Source of the DNA: a virus
Taxonomy: Duplodnaviria; Heunggongvirae; Uroviricota; Caudoviricetes
Length of the DNA: 8,396 bases
Strand: one strand, 5' to 3'
IMG/VR virus record: IMGVR_UViG_2778261464_000009
Location: 1-8,396 of that record
Positions within the stretch are counted from its first letter, which is position 1. The number at the start of each line of letters is the position of its first letter. Of this stretch, positions 1 to 8,396 are shown in pieces. The notes under the pieces are model-generated. The model was not told where the DNA came from. It worked only from the letters and a program-made list of their open reading frames with translations, and ran no database searches. The translations under genes were made by a program, and so were the position numbers.

Positions 1-69
1 AATAATTTCTGGTCAGACTCTGAATACCGACTCAATAAACACGGCTCTGTATTAAATGCTGTATTAATC

Positions 70-267
70 ATGCTGGCGCAACATGCTCTGCTTATAGCAA
101 TTTCAAGCGACTTAAATGCATATGGTGTTGTGTGTGAGTTCGACTGGAATGATGGAAATGGTCAGGAAGGATGGCCTCCAATGGATGGTAGCGAAGGAAT
201 AAGAATTACCGATATCGATACATCAGGAATATTTGATTCAGATGATATGACTATCAAGGCCGCCTGA
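70..267 (+). CDS. Hypothetical acidic protein; may be the C-terminal part of a longer CDS, since this frame has no stop back to position 1
   Basis: ORF track 70..267; the same frame is open from nt 1. No Shine-Dalgarno before ATG 70, so the true start may lie upstream of the window. A GC hairpin follows the stop. Confidence 0.3.
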   Translation: MLAQHALLIAISSDLNAYGVVCEFDWNDGNGQEGWPPMDGSEGIRITDIDTSGIFDSDDMTIKAA

Positions 268-342
268 GTGCGGCTTTACCGCATACCAATAACGCTTCAC
301 TCGAGGCGTTTTCGTTATGCAATCAAACAGAAGGAGAATCCT

Positions 343-513
343 ATGCAACAGTTCGCTATTGCAGGGGCGGCATCGGTTCGCCCTTTCAACCCGATTTTAT
401 CGGTACAGCATTCACGAAAAAATATTTTAACCGGAGCAGACTTTAAACAACCAAGAATGAAAAGTTTGCTCGAAAAGCTTTGGGATATTTTTAAACAACA
501 AGGCCGTCCATGA
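343..513 (+). CDS. Small hypothetical phage protein (56 aa); the track ORF 268..513 trimmed to the RBS-supported start
   Basis: AGGAG at 332-336 sits 6 nt before ATG 343. The stop TGA 511-513 overlaps a downstream ATG at 510 (ATGA). Confidence 0.35.
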   Translation: MQQFAIAGAASVRPFNPILSVQHSRKNILTGADFKQPRMKSLLEKLWDIFKQQGRP

Positions 514-620
514 GTTTTACAGATAACTGGTCAGACGAAGAATTCATTCGTCAGATGAAAGAAATGCTCAATCAGCACAAAGAACAGGAGAAAGATGATG
601 ATTCTGACTCTGAAAGATGA
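510..620 (+). CDS. Possible 36-aa acidic micro-ORF (MSFTDNWSDEEFIRQMKEMLNQHKEQEKDDDSDSER)
   Basis: ATG 510 overlaps the upstream stop. Weak RBS (AAGG). It overlaps the next CDS by 26 nt in another frame. Not in the ORF track because of its size. Confidence 0.2.
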   Translation: MSFTDNWSDEEFIRQMKEMLNQHKEQEKDDDSDSER

Positions 621-906
621 GCGTGAAATATCGCAAATAATCGCAAGTTTTACTGATGAAGATTACGAACGAATCAACAGTGAAGTTGATCGCCTCTGCA
701 AACGTTGCGACCCAATAAGCGAAATGCTTCGCTCATATAAACCAGATGAACACACTAAGGACGCTATCGACTGGCTGGAAGATTATGACTGTAACTATCA
801 GGAAAAAGCCGCTGAATGGTTCTGGGATGCAATAACCGAAAGAGTTAAGGCTGAATATGCCTTCGCAATATTCAAACGCAGACACGTTTATGGAGAAGCA
901 GCATGA
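595..906 (+). CDS. Hypothetical phage protein (103 aa), translationally coupled to recT
   Basis: AGGAG at 586-590; ATG at 595 and 598 (598 gives the better spacing). Stop TGA 904-906 overlaps the recT ATG 903 (ATGA). No recognisable family. Confidence 0.55.
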   Translation: MMILTLKDEREISQIIASFTDEDYERINSEVDRLCKRCDPISEMLRSYKPDEHTKDAIDWLEDYDCNYQEKAAEWFWDAITERVKAEYAFAIFKRRHVYGEAA

Positions 907-1814
907 GCAATATCGTTGAATTCGTTAAACAGCAAGAGCAGTTATTCTGCGGAGCATTGACTGAACAGACGGTGACATGGGCTAAGGAAAGCCAGTTTGC
1001 AATTCAGTATTTCCAGAAAAATGATTACCTGGCTAAAACAGCACTGGCAAATCCAACCAGCGCACAGAACGCCATCATCAATGTTGCGGCGATCGGTATC
1101 ACCTTAAACCCGGCTAGCAAACTGGCTTATCTGGTTCCGCGCGACGGCATGGTGTGCCTTGATATCAGTTATATGGGATTGCTCCATATTGCAATGGAGT
1201 CTGGTGTTATCTCATGGGGTCAGGCAAAACTTGTTCATGCTAACGATACCTATGAGTCAAACGGGCTTGATAAAGCACCAACCCATAAATACAACGCCTT
1301 CGGTGATCGTGGTGATATTGTTGGCGTTTACTGCACAGTTAAGACGCCAGCAGGTGATTATCTAACGGAAGAGATGAGTCTGGCTGAAATTGAGGCTGTA
1401 AGGAAAACAAGCAAGGCAGCATTCAGCGATAAAGGACCATGGGTAAATCACTGGAATGAGATGGCGCGAAAGACGGTCGTAAAGCGTGCAAGCAAGTATT
1501 GGCCTAAGGCATCACGTCTTGATAGTGCTATTCACGTACTAAACGAAGAAGAAGGTGTGTGGACTGAACCAGTTATGCCGCACAAATCAGAGGAAGATAT
1601 CCGCGAAGATGAACGGAAACGCCAGCAGGAAATAATGGATAAAGCACAACTTCTTTGCGATGAAATGGCTCAGGCAGAAAACATGGATGATTTGAAGCGA
1701 TATTTTGCAGAAGCATATCGCCTGACATCTGGAATGAAATTGCAGCAGAACGTACAAGCCATTTACATAGAATGCAAAGCGAAACTGGAGGTTGCCAGTG
1801 AGCAAACTGTATGA
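903..1814 (+). CDS. recT: RecT-family single-strand annealing recombinase
   Basis: 303-aa product with the segment GPWVNHWNEMARKTVVKRASKYWP, which closely matches the conserved E. coli RecT region GPWVTHWEEMAKKTAIRRLFKYLP as recalled. GGAG 7 nt upstream of ATG 903. Confidence 0.85.
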   Translation: MSNIVEFVKQQEQLFCGALTEQTVTWAKESQFAIQYFQKNDYLAKTALANPTSAQNAIINVAAIGITLNPASKLAYLVPRDGMVCLDISYMGLLHIAMESGVISWGQAKLVHANDTYESNGLDKAPTHKYNAFGDRGDIVGVYCTVKTPAGDYLTEEMSLAEIEAVRKTSKAAFSDKGPWVNHWNEMARKTVVKRASKYWPKASRLDSAIHVLNEEEGVWTEPVMPHKSEEDIREDERKRQQEIMDKAQLLCDEMAQAENMDDLKRYFAEAYRLTSGMKLQQNVQAIYIECKAKLEVASEQTV

Positions 1815-2280
1815 AATTGCCAATGAATACGCAAAATTGATGGATTCAGATTTAGAACCAGAGATGATTGCTGACACAATAGAAGGCATGGAAGGAGAAT
1901 TTACCGATAAAATAGAGCAACTTCTTGCCATTATTAAAAATGAATCTGGTTATGCTGAACGCCTCAAGGAAGAGGCAAGGTCGCTGAATGAGCGAGCCGC
2001 AGTAATTCAAAATAAGATTGACAGCATTATGGCGTATATAGCGGCATCGCTTGAAATGGTTGGCAAGAAAAAGATTCGAGCAGGTATTCACCAGGTAACA
2101 ATCCGCAAACCGTCAGAAATTGTAGAAATAATCGACTCAAGCGCCCTTCCTCCTGAATACGTTGAGTTTGAAACGACAATTAAAGCCGACAAACTGGCAA
2201 TCAAACACCAACTAAAAGCAGGAATAAATATCCCCGGTGCTCAACTCAAAGTTGGGAAACCTTCACTTCTTATCAAATAA
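1798..2280 (+). CDS. Siphovirus Gp157-family protein (often partnered with phage annealing proteins)
   Basis: N-terminal LYEIANEYAKL...IADTIEGMEGEF, then a coiled-coil, then a C-terminal VTIRKPSEIVEIID...LPPEYV...IPGAQL pattern, consistent with the Gp157 family as recalled. GGAGG at 1787-1791 is 6 nt before GTG 1798; the track start TTG 1792 is the alternative. Overlaps the recT 3' end. Confidence 0.6.
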   Translation: MSKLYEIANEYAKLMDSDLEPEMIADTIEGMEGEFTDKIEQLLAIIKNESGYAERLKEEARSLNERAAVIQNKIDSIMAYIAASLEMVGKKKIRAGIHQVTIRKPSEIVEIIDSSALPPEYVEFETTIKADKLAIKHQLKAGINIPGAQLKVGKPSLLIK

Positions 2281-2291
2281 CGGTATCGCCT

Positions 2292-2606
2292 ATGAAAAAG
2301 ACTCCATGGGAGAAATGGGAAGTCGATTTCTTGCGCGAGGTAGCGGCGACAATGCCAGTTGAAGTTATCGCAGAAAAACTGGAAAGGACTGAAAAAGCAG
2401 TAATGGCGAAAGCAACAAGGATTGGCGCTGACATTGTTAGCCGACTTCGTGGAAGACGCTGGACAAGAGCCGAAGTATCACTTTTCGGTAAGTTCTCCGC
2501 AGAAGAAATAGCAATTGCAACCTGCCGCTCAATTTATTCAGTAAGAGCTATGCGATACAAGCTAAAAAAACTCGATGAAGAAAGAGCAGGCATACAAATA
2601 AATTAA
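2292..2606 (+). CDS. Hypothetical protein (104 aa) with two internal helix-rich repeats, possibly a Myb/HTH-like DNA-binding fold
   Basis: ORF track. Two similar segments ([32 protein letters not shown] and [31 protein letters not shown]). Weak RBS. Confidence 0.5.
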
Positions 2607-2622
2607 CAAAGAGGAATTTACC

Positions 2623-2787
2623 ATGAGAGGGCTTGCATACAATCCCGGCATTCTTCCGGCAGAAATGATTATTCGCCAACGCGTAAAGCCAATGCCATCG
2701 AGAGAGGAATTGCTTAAGAGAAATTCTTTTCCATCAGTAAATCAAAACAAATATCTGAATGCGATGTGGCGGAGTGGGAAGAAATGA
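2623..2787 (+). CDS. Small hypothetical protein (54 aa, basic)
   Basis: AAGAGG RBS before ATG 2623. Stop TGA 2785-2787 overlaps ATG 2784 of the next CDS (ATGA). Below the track length cutoff. Confidence 0.3.
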
Positions 2788-3266
2788 AACAAATGTCACT
2801 AATTGAGATGGATGATTTTCTGAAAGGTAAATGCATCCCACGAGATTTAAAGGTTAACGAAACAAACGCTGAATATCTGGTGCGTAAATTTGCTGAAGCG
2901 GAGGCCAAGTGCGCGGCGCTGGCCGAAGACCAACAGAAAGCGATTGAGTCAATTAAGCAGGCTGATGCGGCTGTTAAGTTGGCACACGAGAAGTTTTCGG
3001 CGCTGGCGGCGGAGAATGCGGGTCTGAAACACGCAATGGCCGTAACTCTTGAGCATGTGTCGGTAACGGATGCAGGGCAGGCCGGAGTTGCTGCAATGAT
3101 TATCAACGATGCCCTACACCACAGCGAAACCCCAACCACCGATGCTTTCCTGGCTGAAGTACGGGCGCAGGGGGTAGAGATGTTTGCTGACCATCTGTTG
3201 TGCCCAGACCTTGATGACACTATCCGTGACTTTGCTGCCCAGCTTCGCAAAGGAGGCAACCAGTGA
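2784..3266 (+). CDS. Ala-rich coiled-coil phage protein, possibly an Ea22-like module
   Basis: Track ORF 2766..3266. ATG 2784 is preferred because of the ATGA coupling and a GGAG at 2770-2773; GTG 2766 is the alternative. The stop overlaps the next start (GTGA). Confidence 0.55.
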
Positions 3267-3832
3267 GCGAAATTAATTACCAGGCACTGCGTGAGGCGGC
3301 AGAGAAAGCAACGTGGGGAGACTGGGACTCATATAAACCACACCGTGGCGCACGTGGTTATGAGGTCCGACTAAGTAGTCAGGCCATTGCGCAACACGTC
3401 CTGAAAAACAACGCTGAATTTATTGCTGCCTTTAATCCAAAGATTGCTTTGGCACTACTGGATGAACGGGAAAGAAACCAGCAATACATCAAACGCCGCG
3501 ACCAGGAGAACGAGGATATTGCGCTAACAGTAGGGAAGCTGAGAGTTGAGCTGGAAGCCGCAGAGAAGCGCATTGCAGAGCTGGAAAGCAACGAAGTCCG
3601 TGAAGTCGGAAATCAGTTTCTTGTTGTTCGCCATCCTGGGAAAACTCCTGTCATCAAGCACTGCACTGGTGACCTGGAAGAGTTTCTGCGGAAGTTAATC
3701 GAACAAGACCCGTTAGTAACTATCGACATCATTACGCATCGCTATTACGGGATTGGCGGTCAATGGGTTCAGGATGCAGTTGAGTATCTGCATATGATGT
3801 CTGACGCTGGCATTCGCATCAAAGGAGAGTGA
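3263..3832 (+). CDS. Ead/Ea22-like family protein
   Basis: AGGAGG at 3251-3256 is 6 nt before GTG 3263. The N-terminus [17 protein letters not shown]... resembles prophage Ea22-like proteins as recalled; central coiled-coil. Position between the recombination module and xis matches lambda ea22. Confidence 0.55.
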   Translation: MSEINYQALREAAEKATWGDWDSYKPHRGARGYEVRLSSQAIAQHVLKNNAEFIAAFNPKIALALLDERERNQQYIKRRDQENEDIALTVGKLRVELEAAEKRIAELESNEVREVGNQFLVVRHPGKTPVIKHCTGDLEEFLRKLIEQDPLVTIDIITHRYYGIGGQWVQDAVEYLHMMSDAGIRIKGE

Positions 3833-3833
3833 T

Positions 3834-4043
3834 ATGGCTATCGCTGCAAGTTACACCATGCATCTCTATTGTGATTGCCTCCAGTGTACAGATGGCAAAT
3901 ATAAGTCGCCAGACTTCGGTGAGTATATCGGTACGTCATGGGCTGGCTGTGCAAAAGAGGCGCGCAAGGACGGCTGGCGAATAAGCAAAGACAAAACACG
4001 TGCTTTTGCGCCCGGGCATAAAGTTTTGAGGATTAACAAATGA
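3834..4043 (+). CDS. Small Cys-rich protein (69 aa), possible zinc-ribbon
   Basis: AGGAG at 3823-3827 before ATG 3834. The CDC-x2-C motif plus a further Cys suggests metal binding. Stop TGA 4041-4043 overlaps ATG 4040. Confidence 0.5.
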   Translation: MAIAASYTMHLYCDCLQCTDGKYKSPDFGEYIGTSWAGCAKEARKDGWRISKDKTRAFAPGHKVLRINK

Positions 4044-4738
4044 CAACTATTACCAGAGAGCGACTGCTGACAATCAGGCAGTGGCGCGAAACATACGGAC
4101 CGGGTAGCAACGTTGTACTGCCAGCAGAAGAAGCGGAAGAACTGGCACGAATTGCACTGGCATCGATCGAAGCGGAGCCTGTAGCGTGGAAATGGCGGCT
4201 TACTAGTCTTTTTGACGGTGTGCAAATTGGCCCGTGGCGGGTGTGTCTTGCGCCACTATCACCCGGCAAGGGGGATGGGTGCAAGACAGAAGCTATTCCA
4301 CTTTACACCGCCCCGCCAGTACCGGTGGTACCTGCTGCATTACCTGAGAACGACGATGAGGACGGGCATGACATTGATTATCTTGAGCCATCTGAAGTTT
4401 ACGCGCTTGGGCGAACATCTGGCTGGAACGCCTGCCGCGCTGCCATGCTTCATAGTGCCGAACCTGTAAGCCAGGCTTACAAGTTGAACGCGCTGGCTGG
4501 CAACTCTCCGGTAACTCCGGATGGTTGGATAAGCTGTAGTGAGCGAATGCCGAACGATAAACAGTATGTTTGGTGTTGGGGTAAGTCTTACGGTTGGACT
4601 GAGTGCGATACCTTCGAAGGGTATTACGATTGGTCGAGAAACAAATGGTGGGCAGTTACTGACGATGGGGAAGAGCCGGCATCGAAAGTAACCCACTGGA
4701 TGCCGCTGCCAGAACCGCCGGAGCAGGATGGTGAATGA
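4040..4738 (+). CDS. DUF551-domain prophage protein (232 aa)
   Basis: The C-terminal region (PDGWISCSERMPNDKQYVWCW...VTHWMPLPEPP) matches the DUF551 signature as recalled. The N-terminal half is a separate, unrecognised domain. Confidence 0.6.
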   Translation: MTTITRERLLTIRQWRETYGPGSNVVLPAEEAEELARIALASIEAEPVAWKWRLTSLFDGVQIGPWRVCLAPLSPGKGDGCKTEAIPLYTAPPVPVVPAALPENDDEDGHDIDYLEPSEVYALGRTSGWNACRAAMLHSAEPVSQAYKLNALAGNSPVTPDGWISCSERMPNDKQYVWCWGKSYGWTECDTFEGYYDWSRNKWWAVTDDGEEPASKVTHWMPLPEPPEQDGE

Positions 4739-4824
4739 TGCCGCCAGTTAAAGTTGTGATTATCACTTTGGTGATGATAGTGATTGCGAGAATCATGTCT
4801 GGTGAAGTTTGGTGGATATGGTAA
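4735..4824 (+). CDS. Predicted 29-aa hydrophobic single-helix membrane peptide (MMPPVKVVIITLVMIVIARIMSGEVWWIW)
   Basis: ATG 4735 overlaps the upstream stop TGA 4736-4738. One continuous hydrophobic stretch with a Trp-rich C-terminus. Two hairpin-plus-T-tract structures follow directly. Confidence 0.3.
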   Translation: MMPPVKVVIITLVMIVIARIMSGEVWWIW

Positions 4825-4857
4825 TGGCTAAGGCAGCAGCAGAGCGCAACTAACAAT

Positions 4858-4882
4858 CCTCGCTCTCGCGGGGATTTCTTTT
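4858..4882 (+). terminator. Putative intrinsic terminator (first of a tandem pair)
   Basis: Stem CCTCGC/GCGGGG (5 Watson-Crick pairs plus one G-U) with loop TCTC, followed by ATTTCTTTT. Confidence 0.4.
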
Positions 4883-4887
4883 ATCTG

Positions 4888-4912
4888 AACTCGCTACGGC
4901 GAGTTTTGTTTT
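4888..4912 (+). terminator. Putative intrinsic terminator (second of the pair)
   Basis: Perfect 7-bp stem AACTCGC/GCGAGTT with loop TACG, followed by TTGTTTT. Confidence 0.45.
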
Positions 4913-4925
4913 ATGGAGATGATAA

Positions 4926-5093
4926 ATGCACTTCCGAGTCACAGGAGAATGGAATGGAGAGCCATTCAACAGAGTTATCGAAGCAGAGAACATCAACGAC
5001 TGCTATGACCACTGGATGCTATGGGCGCAGATAGCACATGCAGACGTAACCAATATTCGAATTGAAGAACTGAAAGAACACCAAGCCGCCTGA
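4926..5093 (+). CDS. Small hypothetical protein (55 aa)
   Basis: GGAG at 4915-4918 is 7 nt before ATG 4926. Product MHFRVTGEWNGEPFNRVIEAENINDCYDHWMLWAQIAHADVTNIRIEELKEHQAA. The stop lies inside a terminator hairpin. Below the track cutoff. Confidence 0.45.
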   Translation: MHFRVTGEWNGEPFNRVIEAENINDCYDHWMLWAQIAHADVTNIRIEELKEHQAA

Positions 5094-5108
5094 TGGCGGT
5101 TTTTTATT
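5083..5108 (+). terminator. Putative intrinsic terminator
   Basis: GC stem GCCGCC/GGCGG(T) with loop TGAT, followed by TTTTTTATT. Confidence 0.45.
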
Positions 5109-5119
5109 GGAGACAAGAA

Positions 5120-5464
5120 ATGTCAGATTTGGCTATGAAGGTTTTGAAATGGCAATCGACTGGCGATGTTGGCATCAGTAGCGCAACTCTTGCCTCAATC
5201 GCATGTGGACTGAAAAAGAATATCTATGGTCATAGCTTCGGTGCTCCACATGACGCAGCCGATTTCCGACGATGCGTTGCGCTTGTCGAGCAGATTCCAG
5301 AAATCAGGGATTCATTCGACAAGGTTGCAAAGCGCGTTCCGGCATTCAAAGGAATCCTCAACGAATGGGATTCCCTCGTTGCTCTGTTGAAGTCTGAAAT
5401 GAAGATACACGGAAACAAAGCACCAGAGACTTACAGAAGAATCAGCGAGCTACGCAAGGACTAA
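5120..5464 (+). CDS. Hypothetical protein (114 aa), uncharacterised accessory gene just upstream of xis
   Basis: Track ORF 5093..5464 trimmed to ATG 5120, which has a GGAG at 5109-5112 with 7-nt spacing; ATG 5093 sits inside the terminator stem. No recognisable family. Confidence 0.55.
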   Translation: MSDLAMKVLKWQSTGDVGISSATLASIACGLKKNIYGHSFGAPHDAADFRRCVALVEQIPEIRDSFDKVAKRVPAFKGILNEWDSLVALLKSEMKIHGNKAPETYRRISELRKD

Positions 5465-5553
5465 CCACAGCCTCACACTCGATGAGGCCTGTTCATTTCT
5501 CAAGATATCCAGACCTACCGCAATAATACCAACGCAATAAATGGAGATTCCAG

Positions 5554-5901
5554 GTGGAAGAAGAAATCTTCACTCGTGAAGAGGCTGCGTCGTATCTGAA
5601 GGTAGACAAAGGCACTATCACGCAGTGGATACGAAGTGGACGACTTCAAGCCGCAAAGATAAATCCAGATAAACCTAAAAGCCCATATCGCATTTGCAAG
5701 TCAGACTGCATTGCGGCGCTTAAGTCTGTGAGACACAATAGCGCGGTGAATGCGGTTGATGTGCAGGAGGTTAAAGCATGTCAATCAAACTACGCGGTGG
5801 CACGTGGCACTGCGATTTCGTCGCGCCAGATGGATCAAGAGTTAGACGCTCTCTTGAAACATCGGACAAAAGGCAAGCGCAAGAACTTCACGATCGTCTG
5901 A
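5554..5901 (+). CDS. xis: Excisionase-family DNA-binding protein (Xis)
   Basis: N-terminal FTREEAASYLKVDKGTITQWIRSGRLQAAKI matches the excisionase-family HTH pattern. GGAG is 7 nt before GTG 5554. It lies directly upstream of int and overlaps it by 124 nt in another frame; the 3' extent is uncertain. Confidence 0.6.
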   Translation: MEEEIFTREEAASYLKVDKGTITQWIRSGRLQAAKINPDKPKSPYRICKSDCIAALKSVRHNSAVNAVDVQEVKACQSNYAVARGTAISSRQMDQELDALLKHRTKGKRKNFTIV

Positions 5902-6938
5902 AAGCAGAAGCGTGGAGAGTAAAAAATCTCGGGGAATCACCGAAAAAGCTATTCAAGGAAGCCTGCATACGGTGGCTGCGTGAGAAATCGGATAAGAAGT
6001 CCATTGATGATGACAAGAGCATTATATCGTTCTGGATGTTGCACTTCAGAGAAACCATTCTCTCTGACATAACAACAGAAAAAATAATGGAGGCGGTAGA
6101 CGGGATGGAAAACCGCCGCCATCGCCTGAACTGGGAGATGAGCCGGGACAGGTGTTTGCGGCTTGGCAAGCCAGTGCCGGAGTATAAACCAAAGCTGGCA
6201 AGCAAAGGAACGAAGACGCGGCATCTGGCAATACTTCGCGCTATTCTCAATATGGCTGTTGAATGGGGATGGCTTGACAGGGCGCCAAAAATATCAACAC
6301 CACGCGTTAAGAATGGACGAATCAGATGGCTTACAGAGGAGGAATCGAAGCGCCTGTTTGCAGAAATTGCTCCTCATTTCTTCCCTGTGGTCATGTTTGC
6401 AATCACGACAGGCCTTCGCCGTTCCAACGTTACAGACCTTGAGTGGTCACAGGTCGATCTGGATAAGAAAATGGCATGGATGCACCCTGATGAAACAAAA
6501 GCTGGCAATGCGATCGGAGTTCCTCTTAACGAAACCGCATGCCAGATATTAAGAAAACAGCAGGGGCTCCATAAGAGATGGGTATTTGTCCACACCAAAC
6601 CTGCCTACCGAAGCGACGGAACAAAAACAGCAGCGGTAAGGAAGATGAGAACCGACAGCAACAAGGCATGGAAGGGAGCGTTAAAGCGGGCAGGCATTAG
6701 CAACTTCCGCTTCCATGACCTGAGGCATACCTGGGCAAGCTGGCTGGTTCAGTCTGGTGTCTCTCTTCTTGCGCTTAAAGAGATGGGAGGATGGGAAACT
6801 CTCGAAATGGTTCAAAGATACGCCCACCTTTCAGCCGGGCATCTCACCGAGCACGCGAGCAAAATCGATGCGATTATAAGTCGCAATGGCACAAATACGG
6901 CACAAGAGGAGAACGTAGTTTACTTAAATGCGAGGTAA
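5778..6938 (+). CDS. int: Tyrosine-type site-specific integrase (phage integrase family)
   Basis: 386 aa. N-terminal arm-type domain (MSIKLRGGTWHCDFVAPDGSRVRRS...). Catalytic residues in context: TGLRRSN, HDLRHTWAS, and Tyr in MVQRYAHL. AGGAGG is 7 nt before ATG 5778. Ends 14 bp from the tRNA. Confidence 0.9.
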   Translation: MSIKLRGGTWHCDFVAPDGSRVRRSLETSDKRQAQELHDRLKAEAWRVKNLGESPKKLFKEACIRWLREKSDKKSIDDDKSIISFWMLHFRETILSDITTEKIMEAVDGMENRRHRLNWEMSRDRCLRLGKPVPEYKPKLASKGTKTRHLAILRAILNMAVEWGWLDRAPKISTPRVKNGRIRWLTEEESKRLFAEIAPHFFPVVMFAITTGLRRSNVTDLEWSQVDLDKKMAWMHPDETKAGNAIGVPLNETACQILRKQQGLHKRWVFVHTKPAYRSDGTKTAAVRKMRTDSNKAWKGALKRAGISNFRFHDLRHTWASWLVQSGVSLLALKEMGGWETLEMVQRYAHLSAGHLTEHASKIDAIISRNGTNTAQEENVVYLNAR

Positions 6939-6952
6939 CTTATTGATTTAAA

Positions 6953-7028
6953 TGGTGCCGATAATAGGAGTCGAACCTACGACCTTCGCATTACGAATGC
7001 GCTGCTCTACCAACTGAGCTATATCGGC
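6953..7028 (-). tRNA. thrW: tRNA-Thr (anticodon CGU)
   Basis: The reverse complement is a 76-nt tRNA: GCCGATATAGCTCAGTTGGTAGAGCAGCGCATTCGTAATGCGAAGGTCGTAGGTTCGACTCCTATTATCGGCACCA. 7-bp acceptor stem, GTTCGA T-loop, anticodon CGT at positions 34-36, encoded CCA end. Confidence 0.9.
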
Positions 7029-7142
7029 CCTGAAAGGACATGTTCACGAACGTGAATCACGGTGGGCAAGGTTAAAACTAACCGGGCGATGCGTCAATGG
7101 CCTTGTGAATCAAATGGCTACTTTTGCATCACCCGGTTTTAT

Positions 7143-8396
7143 TTACGCACGAATGGTGTAATCACCAATGCCGATCCACTTGTAAGTGGTCAGTGCTTCC
7201 AGCCCCATTGGGCCACGCGCGTGGAGTTTTTGTGTGCTTACCGCCACTTCCGCACCCAGTCCAAACTGACCGCCGTCGGTAAAACGCGTAGAAGCGTTAA
7301 CGTAAACAGCGGACGAATCCACTTCGTTAACAAAACGCTGGGCGTTGCGCATATCGCGGGTCAGGATCGCATCGGAGTGTTGTGTGCCGTGTTCACGAAT
7401 ATGGGCGATGGCATCGTCAAGATCGCTGACGATTTTGACGTTCAAATCTAATGACAGAAACTCATCGTCATACTCTTCGGCTTTAACCGCCACCACCTTC
7501 GCGGGGCCAGCCTGCAACTGTGTCAGCGCAGCTGCATCTGCGTGTAATGTCACGCCGCTTTCCGCCATTTGTTTGCTTAATACGGGCAGGAAGCTATCGG
7601 CGATGTTTTTATTCACCAGCAACGTTTCTACCGTATTACATGTGCTCGGACGCTGAGTTTTCGCGTTGACGATCACTTTTAATGCTTCAGCGATCTCTGC
7701 ACTTTCATCAACATAAATATGGCATACGCCTATACCACCTGTGATCACCGGGATCGTCGACTGTTCGCGGCACAGTTTATGCAAACCAGCCCCGCCGCGC
7801 GGGATCAGCATGTCGATGTATTTATCCATACGCAGCATTTCACTGACCAGCGCACGGTCAGGATTATCAATTGCCTGCACGGCACCCGCCGGTAAGCCAC
7901 AGGATTTCAGGGCGTCCTGAATCACCGCCACCGTTGCCGCGTTAGTGCGACAGGTTTCTTTGCCGCCGCGCAGGATCACCGCGTTACCGGTTTTCAGGCA
8001 CAGCGAAGCGACATCAACCGTCACGTTCGGGCGCGCTTCATAAATCACGCCAATAACCCCCAGCGGTACGCGACGACGCTCAAGACGCAGGCCGCTGTCC
8101 AGTACGCCGCCATCGATTACCTGCCCCACCGGATCGGCGAGGTTGCACACCTGACGTACATCGTCGGCAATGCCTTTCAGCCGTGCGGGCGTCAGTGCCA
8201 GACGGTCAAGCATCGCTTCGCTAAGGCCATTGGCACGCGCGTCAGCAACATCCTGGGCGTTAGCGTTGAGGATGATTTTGCTCTGTGCTTCCAGTTCATC
8301 GGCGATTTTTTCCAGCACGCGATTTTTTTCGCGGCTTGAGAGTTGCGCTAATTTATACGAGGCTTGCTTCGCGGCAATGCCCATTTGCTCCAGCAT
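7143..8396 (-). CDS. proA: Gamma-glutamyl phosphate reductase (glutamate-5-semialdehyde dehydrogenase), full length
   Basis: 417-aa product beginning [39 protein letters not shown]... and ending ...[12 protein letters not shown], near-identical to E. coli ProA as recalled. The start codon is at the window's right edge. Confidence 0.95.

Follow-up and report, generated by a model that had tools for sequence, protein, structure and literature searches.

An integrase-thrW junction that very probably forms the int-proximal end of an HK446/mEp043-type lambdoid prophage

Gene content of the window

The window, by which we mean the whole stretch of 8,396 nucleotides that was analysed (positions 1 to 8,396 of IMG/VR record IMGVR_UViG_2778261464_000009), carries phage genes on its left, a tRNA gene and a chromosomal gene of the host on its right. 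The genes around the junction are arranged as follows.

5554-5901, plus strand: xis, an excisionase of 115 aa with a GTG start, overlapping int by 124 bp
5778-6938, plus strand: int, a heterobivalent-type tyrosine integrase of 386 aa, reading towards thrW
6939-6952, no strand: the 14-bp spacer that separates the int stop codon from the tRNA 3' end, CTTATTGATTTAAA
6953-7028, minus strand: thrW, tRNA-Thr(CGU), assigned by ARAGORN, Rfam and identity to K-12
7143-8396, minus strand: proA, glutamate-5-semialdehyde dehydrogenase, the host flank, assigned by Pfam Aldedh and by annotation

The int product matches the Pfam family Phage_integrase (PF00589, E=9e-35) and carries the R-K-H-R-H/W-Y signature of tyrosine recombinases, with a complete catalytic set (R214, K241, H313, R316, W339 and Y348) as judged by its motifs and by aligning it with chains of XerC-like and HP1 integrases. 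Solved chains of lambda Int did not come up at E<=0.001 in the sequence search. The int product is identical (100%) to the Int of phage HK446, 99.7% identical to those of mEp043 and mEpX2, and about 55% identical to those of P22, SfV, SfI and ST64T (54% across 380 aa in the case of P22). The xis product matches both the Pfam family HTH_17 (E=1.4e-8) and the excisionase family PHROG 2907 (E=1.5e-52), and shares 42% identity with P22 Xis. The two reading frames overlap by 124 bp in the window (5778-5901) as in P22 (22393-22516), and full-length homology to the P22 family of integrases is found together with an upstream, overlapping xis. Further to the left, positions 1-5500 hold an early-left region of mosaic character that encodes RecT, a Mu Gam-like protein, a fragment of a D5-like regulator, Ea22/ead-like proteins and several proteins of unknown function. 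Neither among phage genomes nor among complete E. coli genomes was there a match covering at least 80% of the window.

On the other side of the junction, ARAGORN calls a minus-strand tRNA-Thr at 6953-7028 (anticodon CGT), the Rfam tRNA model matches the same interval (71.8 bits, E=1.3e-14), and the gene is identical to thrW of E. coli K-12, its 3' CCA reading TGG on the plus strand at 6953-6955. The int stop codon, read directly from the sequence, is the TAA at 6936-6938. The gene beyond the tRNA is annotated as proA at the matching position in all matching E. coli genomes and is about 98% identical to E. coli/Shigella proA. The junction as such was found in 633 of 5,426 complete E. coli genomes. 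No promoter-like sites that the junction could have created for thrW were found, nor a junction-made thrW terminator, two terminator-like hairpins being not above the shuffle expectation of 1.2.

The short distance between int and thrW is a recurrent feature. It is likewise 14 bp in P22, and the same gap is kept in all six intact convergent homologues that adjoin thrW in other genera; given these instances, it is not a product of chance. A side observation concerns Shimwellia pseudoproteus DSM 3038 (L106, NZ_WBXP01000038.1), in which an Int 99.5% identical to that of the window adjoins thrW next to a proA that shares only about 87% identity with the one in the window, which suggests either recent spread of the phage module between genera or a mislabelled genome.

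The att identity block and the P' arm

Several shorter features, some of them directly read and others predicted from motifs, lie within and next to the tRNA gene.

6888-6894 and 6899-6905, plus strand: two tandem arm-type motifs, GGCACAA, inside the 3' coding end of int; candidate Int sites of the P' arm
6936-6948, minus strand: an H'-like match to the IHF consensus, AATCAATAAGTTA, an exact fit to WATCAANNNNTTR
6951-6998, no strand: the att identity block, made up of 46 nt of thrW (6953-6998, tRNA positions 31-76) and AA (6951-6952)
6969-6991, minus strand: the equivalent of the 23-bp attP core annotated in P22, ATGCGAAGGTCGTAGGTTCGACT, with its centre at 6977-6983
6991-6997, minus strand: the anticodon loop, TTCGTAA, the favoured candidate place of the 7-bp strand-exchange region
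6999-7028, minus strand: thrW positions 1-30, host-derived; the 3' part of the gene belongs to the shared block

Free phage genomes define the outer edge of the block. Megablast identity to mEp043, mEp213, mEpX2, HK542 and ECP1 stops at 6998, a short-query search found SfII, ST64T, ST160, phage L and ES18 to stop at the same base, and the match to Edwardsiella phage GF-2 extends 3 bp beyond it. These attP sites thus carry the 46-nt 3' part of thrW, with a break at tRNA position 30/31. A similar picture emerges from viral contigs: among the 120 stretches listed from IMG/VR there are 45 partial thrW 3' copies, which start at position 31 (38 copies), 30 (2), 28 (4) or at position 31 with one SNP (1). 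At the other edge, a four-way alignment of the window, both junctions of a lysogen (E. coli MB53, described below) and the mEp043 attP gives a common block of 48 bp (6951-6998), of which the P22 attP shares 46 bp (6953-6998); the extra AA (6951-6952) is shared only in the closest phages. Read in reverse complement, these 46 bp agree base for base with the published core ATTCGTAATGCGAAGGTCGTAGGTTCGACTCCTATTATCGGCACCA, which is 46 nt long and is stated to be the same in SfI, SfII, SfV, SfX and P22 (PMC3636060).

Since shared identity ends at 6998, this is the outermost phage-identical base, host-only DNA begins at 6999, and the crossover has to fall within 6951-6998; the part of the tRNA between the crossover and the CCA end is phage-supplied and base-for-base the same as native thrW. 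The initial annotation therefore fares well in its main points. Coordinates, ARAGORN and Rfam agree with an int stop at 6938 that lies 14 bp from the thrW 3' end; the att core is indeed inside the tRNA gene, the identity with free-phage attP reaching tRNA position 31; and the 3' part of the tRNA, which had been attributed to phage DNA, matches the thrW positions 31-76 carried by attP. The statement that the junction fixes the right prophage boundary needs refinement: a boundary can be drawn, with host-only sequence from 6999, but its edge is 46 nt into the tRNA and not near the CCA.

We also considered whether the attP sequence 5' of position 31 could be a decayed 5' half of the tRNA. This was rejected, as it aligns no better than shuffles (median z = -0.15 for 46 distinct attP flanks against tRNA positions 1-30). 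Two further arrangements at the block were observed. E. coli STK78-E (L003:9176-13221) has the same int side and a wholly different right flank, with the break at the same base: the int-side core leads to a P22-like P arm, a type ISP restriction-modification gene and ISVsa5, without the 5' half of thrW, in what looks like tandem elements at thrW. The 44.8-kb record of E. coli CE-O153H30 (NZ_CP172337.1:38882-38925) holds a 44-bp exact match to window 6935-6978, which spans the int stop codon, the spacer and the 3' 26 nt of the tRNA and lies under a tyrosine recombinase gene; this replicon may be a circular phage or a phage-plasmid with a shorter att block.

Within the block, the pattern of conservation favours one place of strand exchange. 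In essentially all lineages the edge of the block is found 1 bp to the 5' side of the anticodon loop (tRNA positions 32-38), and the lineages that share this edge have unrelated P arms. Across 46 distinct attP-side flanks, tRNA-equivalent position 25 is C in 96% and position 26 is T in 83%. The left-flank consensus of attP is TTCTTCTAA; with the loop as the axis it mirrors ACCTTCGCA, which is positions 39-47 in reverse complement, and a CTTC element in the flanks (L001-L248) is symmetric to positions 42-45 about the same loop; such mirror symmetry between flank and stem is consistent with C and C' core-type sites, as would be expected of them. An anticodon-loop sublocation class of tRNA-integrating elements was reportedly described by Williams in 2002, and the block in the window has the extent of that class, running from the anticodon loop through the tRNA 3' end (positions 31-76). 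From these patterns we favour the anticodon loop, at 6991-6997, as the place of strand exchange, with moderate confidence.

The P22 record, on the other hand, marks a 23-bp attP core (feature 21300-21322) that does not coincide with the anticodon loop, and the window has the identical sequence, ATGCGAAGGTCGTAGGTTCGACT; the same 23-bp core is quoted in PMC8022706. Exchange could accordingly take place at the centre of this core (tRNA positions 46-52, window 6977-6983), which is flanked by an imperfect inverted repeat, ATGCGAAG/AGTCGAAC. With that centre, the identity block would contain all four core half-sites, and the IHF motif would lie at about +38 and the arm motifs at about +75 to +92, distances nearer to those of the lambda P' arm. 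However, this placement leaves unexplained why positions 31-37 are invariant everywhere while position 30 and beyond are variable, and why CTTC in the attP flank mirrors positions 42-45 about the loop; moreover, the symmetry of the 23-mer is just 5/8 by manual count. We regard the 23-bp centre as a tenable but less probable place of exchange. Polymorphism between proximal and distal copies was uninformative on the crossover because the listed copies, which are either the full tRNA or identical from the 5' edge (28-31) to the 3' end, do not vary save for one change: among about 240 copies listed, the sole polymorphism in the block is G35A, at the middle base of the anticodon, in an IMG/VR contig (L197, 2290-2330). 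The 120 genome loci among the copies had been chosen for an exact 46-mer. In the L197 contig, the partial thrW copy has an mEp043-type P arm on one side and an SfX-like int on the other.

On the left side of the block, motifs suggest a P' arm that reaches into the 3' coding end of int. The window contains the P' arm only, and the P arm was read from mEp043 and P22. The arm-type motif is G(G/T)CACAA in the lineage of the window and mEp043, and GTCCCA in P22; in both mEp043 and P22, two tandem copies lie at -65 and -54 from the CCA end, and three copies lie in the P arm, at +112, +153 and +164 in mEp043 and at +100, +154 and +165 in P22. These attP sets account for five of the six forward motif copies in the 11.8-kb mEp043 locus and for five of the eight forward GTCCCA copies in the whole P22 genome. 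The sequence of the arm repeat thus differs between two Int lineages and its five positions are kept almost to the base, and a change in arm-site specificity appears to accompany the divergence of the Int N-terminus, as far as motif comparison can tell.

The IHF-consensus match provides the other element of the arm. The TTA of its motif is the complement of the int stop codon. Among 120 genome loci from many Enterobacterales genera, selected by an exact 46-mer, 32 have an exact IHF motif no more than 40 nt downstream of thrW, 22 of them at the same offset; the background for the motif is 0.27% of 40-nt windows. Arm-type sites on both arms and an IHF site adjacent to the core are therefore represented by the presence of the motifs and by their conserved offsets, and binding of Int and IHF at these predicted sites would be in keeping with the biochemistry of P22 and lambda. 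In our reading, the 14-bp gap would be fixed by an H'-type IHF site of the P' arm: int probably ends so near the tRNA because this site spans the spacer together with the stop codon, and because the arm sites lie within int.

The distal end and the unoccupied site

The initial annotation predicted that the tRNA 3' segment recurs as a direct repeat at the far end of the prophage, outside the window. The window has indeed a single copy of this segment and no second one, and the distal end was examined in related lysogens. E. coli MB53, which is 98% identical to window 4851-8396 (int, thrW and proA), has a second exact 48-bp copy 40,157 bp away. The two copies flank a complete P22-like prophage of about 40 kb with genes for tailspike, ejection proteins, a gp5-type capsid, portal, terminase, lysis, replication and immunity, and after the immunity genes the order runs through early-left genes, xis and int. 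A distal direct repeat has also been described for SfI/SfX (PMC3636060, PMC3306764). As for its length, 15-45 nt had been guessed; the actual block of 46-48 bp puts it at the top of that range.

The distal repeat is not universal among genomes with this junction. E. coli MB06232 (L249:43259-49246) has a junction 99.8% identical to that of the window but only a remnant of ~6 kb. What is left is int with a tailspike, an acyltransferase and a truncated DNA-transfer gene, and next to the remnant lie a partial integrase and CP4-6-like genes; no second core copy was found there within 49 kb. The int of the window could by analogy belong to a decayed, non-excisable remnant whose distal att repeat is absent from the source genome, and fossils of this int end are common at E. 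coli thrW. Yet int and xis are intact in the window and identical or near-identical to the versions in plaque-forming phages, and they are preceded by 5.5 kb of unbroken early-left genes (RecT, Gam-like, Ea22-like and others) in the same order as in the complete MB53 prophage. We therefore consider such decay unlikely, and infer that the prophage is complete in its source genome.

A distal junction of another kind is seen in E. coli NS-NP030 (L250:3640-6621), where the core joins a fossil P' arm to a P22-type P arm with GTCCCA motifs, and the reverse transcriptase and effector of retron Ec48 come directly after it; the retron appears to be defence cargo that a thrW prophage carries at its attR end.

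An unoccupied site was available for comparison in E. coli 2017.17.03CC, where the order paoB-paoC-paoD-yagP'(truncated)-thrW-proA has no inserted element. The comparison confirmed the right edge at 6998/6999. Its left edge is blurred, because the unoccupied site itself already bears a fossil of int: thrW is followed by ~70 bp (L128:3990-4068) whose identity to window 6884-6952 is roughly 95%, and the window and the empty site are thus similar between about 6884 and 6998. The ~70 bp are what remains of the same int 3' end, with yagP truncated alongside, and they hold two GGCACAA-type motifs and the IHF consensus. In K-12 the same fossil follows ptwF, the distal repeat of CP4-6 (L126:3755-3790). 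The arrangement of yagP', fossil and core is present in 1,891 of 5,426 genomes, a count that pools empty sites and distal junctions. The distal flank of MB53 was also tried as the native attB flank and rejected, as it belongs to a further island, the integrase of which is co-directional; a site that is truly unoccupied has the order paoD-yagP'-thrW.

With this fossil of a window-type P' arm, the 'empty' thrW of E. coli is not a naked attB. In a more far-reaching reading, which we consider rather improbable as a whole, a phage with this Int would recombine attP with an attL-like site, and the resulting distal junction would be attP-like, with a P arm, the core and a fossil P' arm. If Int and IHF still bind the fossil arm, the forward and reverse reactions would use equivalent substrates, and this could weaken Xis-dependent directionality, or favour tandem lysogeny and prophage replacement at thrW. 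The fossil P' arm is an only mildly new angle on the site, and its functional relevance is speculative.

Relation to other thrW elements and significance

The closest known relatives of the junction are the lambdoid phages HK446, mEp043, mEp213, mEpX2 and HK542, the module of which is annotated as 'type CP4-6 / thrW'; in the records of mEp043 and HK542, attP bears the annotation 'similar to thrW and ptwF'. The HK446/mEp043 group shares with the window an Int of 99.7-100% identity and DNA of about 98% identity through xis, int and attP up to 6998. It differs in that these are free genomes with an attP and not an integrated junction, and in its early-left content, which is mosaic. The Shigella flexneri phages SfI, SfII, SfV and SfX have the same 46-nt core and a site downstream of proA, but their Ints are about 55% identical and gtr O-antigen genes lie at the distal end; in these phages int and cargo occupy opposite ends of the prophage, and tandem integration has been documented (PMC3636060, PMC3306764). 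P22 resembles the window in its 46-nt core, 14-bp gap, 124-bp xis/int overlap, place of the IHF consensus and five arm-type repeats, the offsets of which are almost the same, and differs in Int (54%) and Xis (42%), in the motif (GTCCCA versus G(G/T)CACAA) and in a P arm that is unrelated beyond the core. Lambda provides a more distant parallel, with a heterobivalent Int that uses arm-type and core-type sites, to which the window can be likened on the strength of its motifs, an IHF site between core and P' arm, and an xis upstream of int and overlapping it. Lambda itself integrates between gal and bio, at a 15-bp core without a tRNA gene.

CP4-6 of K-12 (thrW ... ptwF) has the same tRNA target, and ptwF repeats thrW positions 28-76, followed by the fossil of a window-type int end. 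It differs from the window in that intF lies at the far end, adjoining ptwF, with its start towards ptwF, and in that intF is a different, longer integrase (a 1,401-nt gene). This comparison bears on whether the junction might belong to a P4-type genomic island, similar to CP4-6, that uses the T-loop/3' end of thrW with a repeat of ~19 nt. P4-type elements do occupy thrW: in MB53 and many other loci a co-directional integrase lies downstream of a thrW copy, and O157-type genomes share positions 58-76 only. However, such islands have a co-directional downstream integrase and a repeat of about 17-20 nt, neither of which is seen here; in the window int runs convergently to thrW and stops 14 bp short of it, its product is a member of the P22 Int family, and the block measures 46-48 nt. 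Because of this orientation, homology and block length, an island of the P4 type can be dismissed with near certainty.

As an aside, a second class of thrW element is apparent in the data, either as 19 nt (positions 58-76) shared with the yagP' flank (O157-type genomes, H166/H167) or as a co-directional integrase downstream of a thrW copy (L001:6361-7575). These are P4-type islands at a different sublocation of the same tRNA.

The reading that we prefer, with a probability of about 0.93, is that positions 5554-6998 form the int-proximal end of a lambdoid prophage with an int-xis-attP module of the HK446/mEp043 type, integrated at thrW. This module is related to that of P22/SfV/SfX. Its attP carries thrW positions 31-76 exactly, Int would have recombined this attP with chromosomal thrW, and the end in the window would be attL in the proA-thrW-int orientation. 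The int-adjacent tRNA would have remained functional, with a 5' side from the host and phage DNA from the crossover to the CCA, its sequence unchanged. The P' arm, to the left of the block, would consist of two candidate arm-type Int sites within the int 3' coding end and of a site with the IHF consensus, which occupies the 14-bp spacer and takes in the stop codon of int.

The thrW gene beside proA is a classic integration hot spot of P22, the Shigella Sf phages and CP4-6, and the junction in the window is already known as a well-documented P22/SfX-type lambdoid insertion at this place. It leaves the current understanding of such insertions unchallenged. Its value lies in annotation: one end of the prophage is fixed, the module is typed as HK446/mEp043, and a 46-nt search string is provided. 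Beyond this, the junction illustrates what may underlie the 14-bp gap between int and thrW, namely a spacer and a stop codon that together form a conserved IHF consensus of the P' arm.
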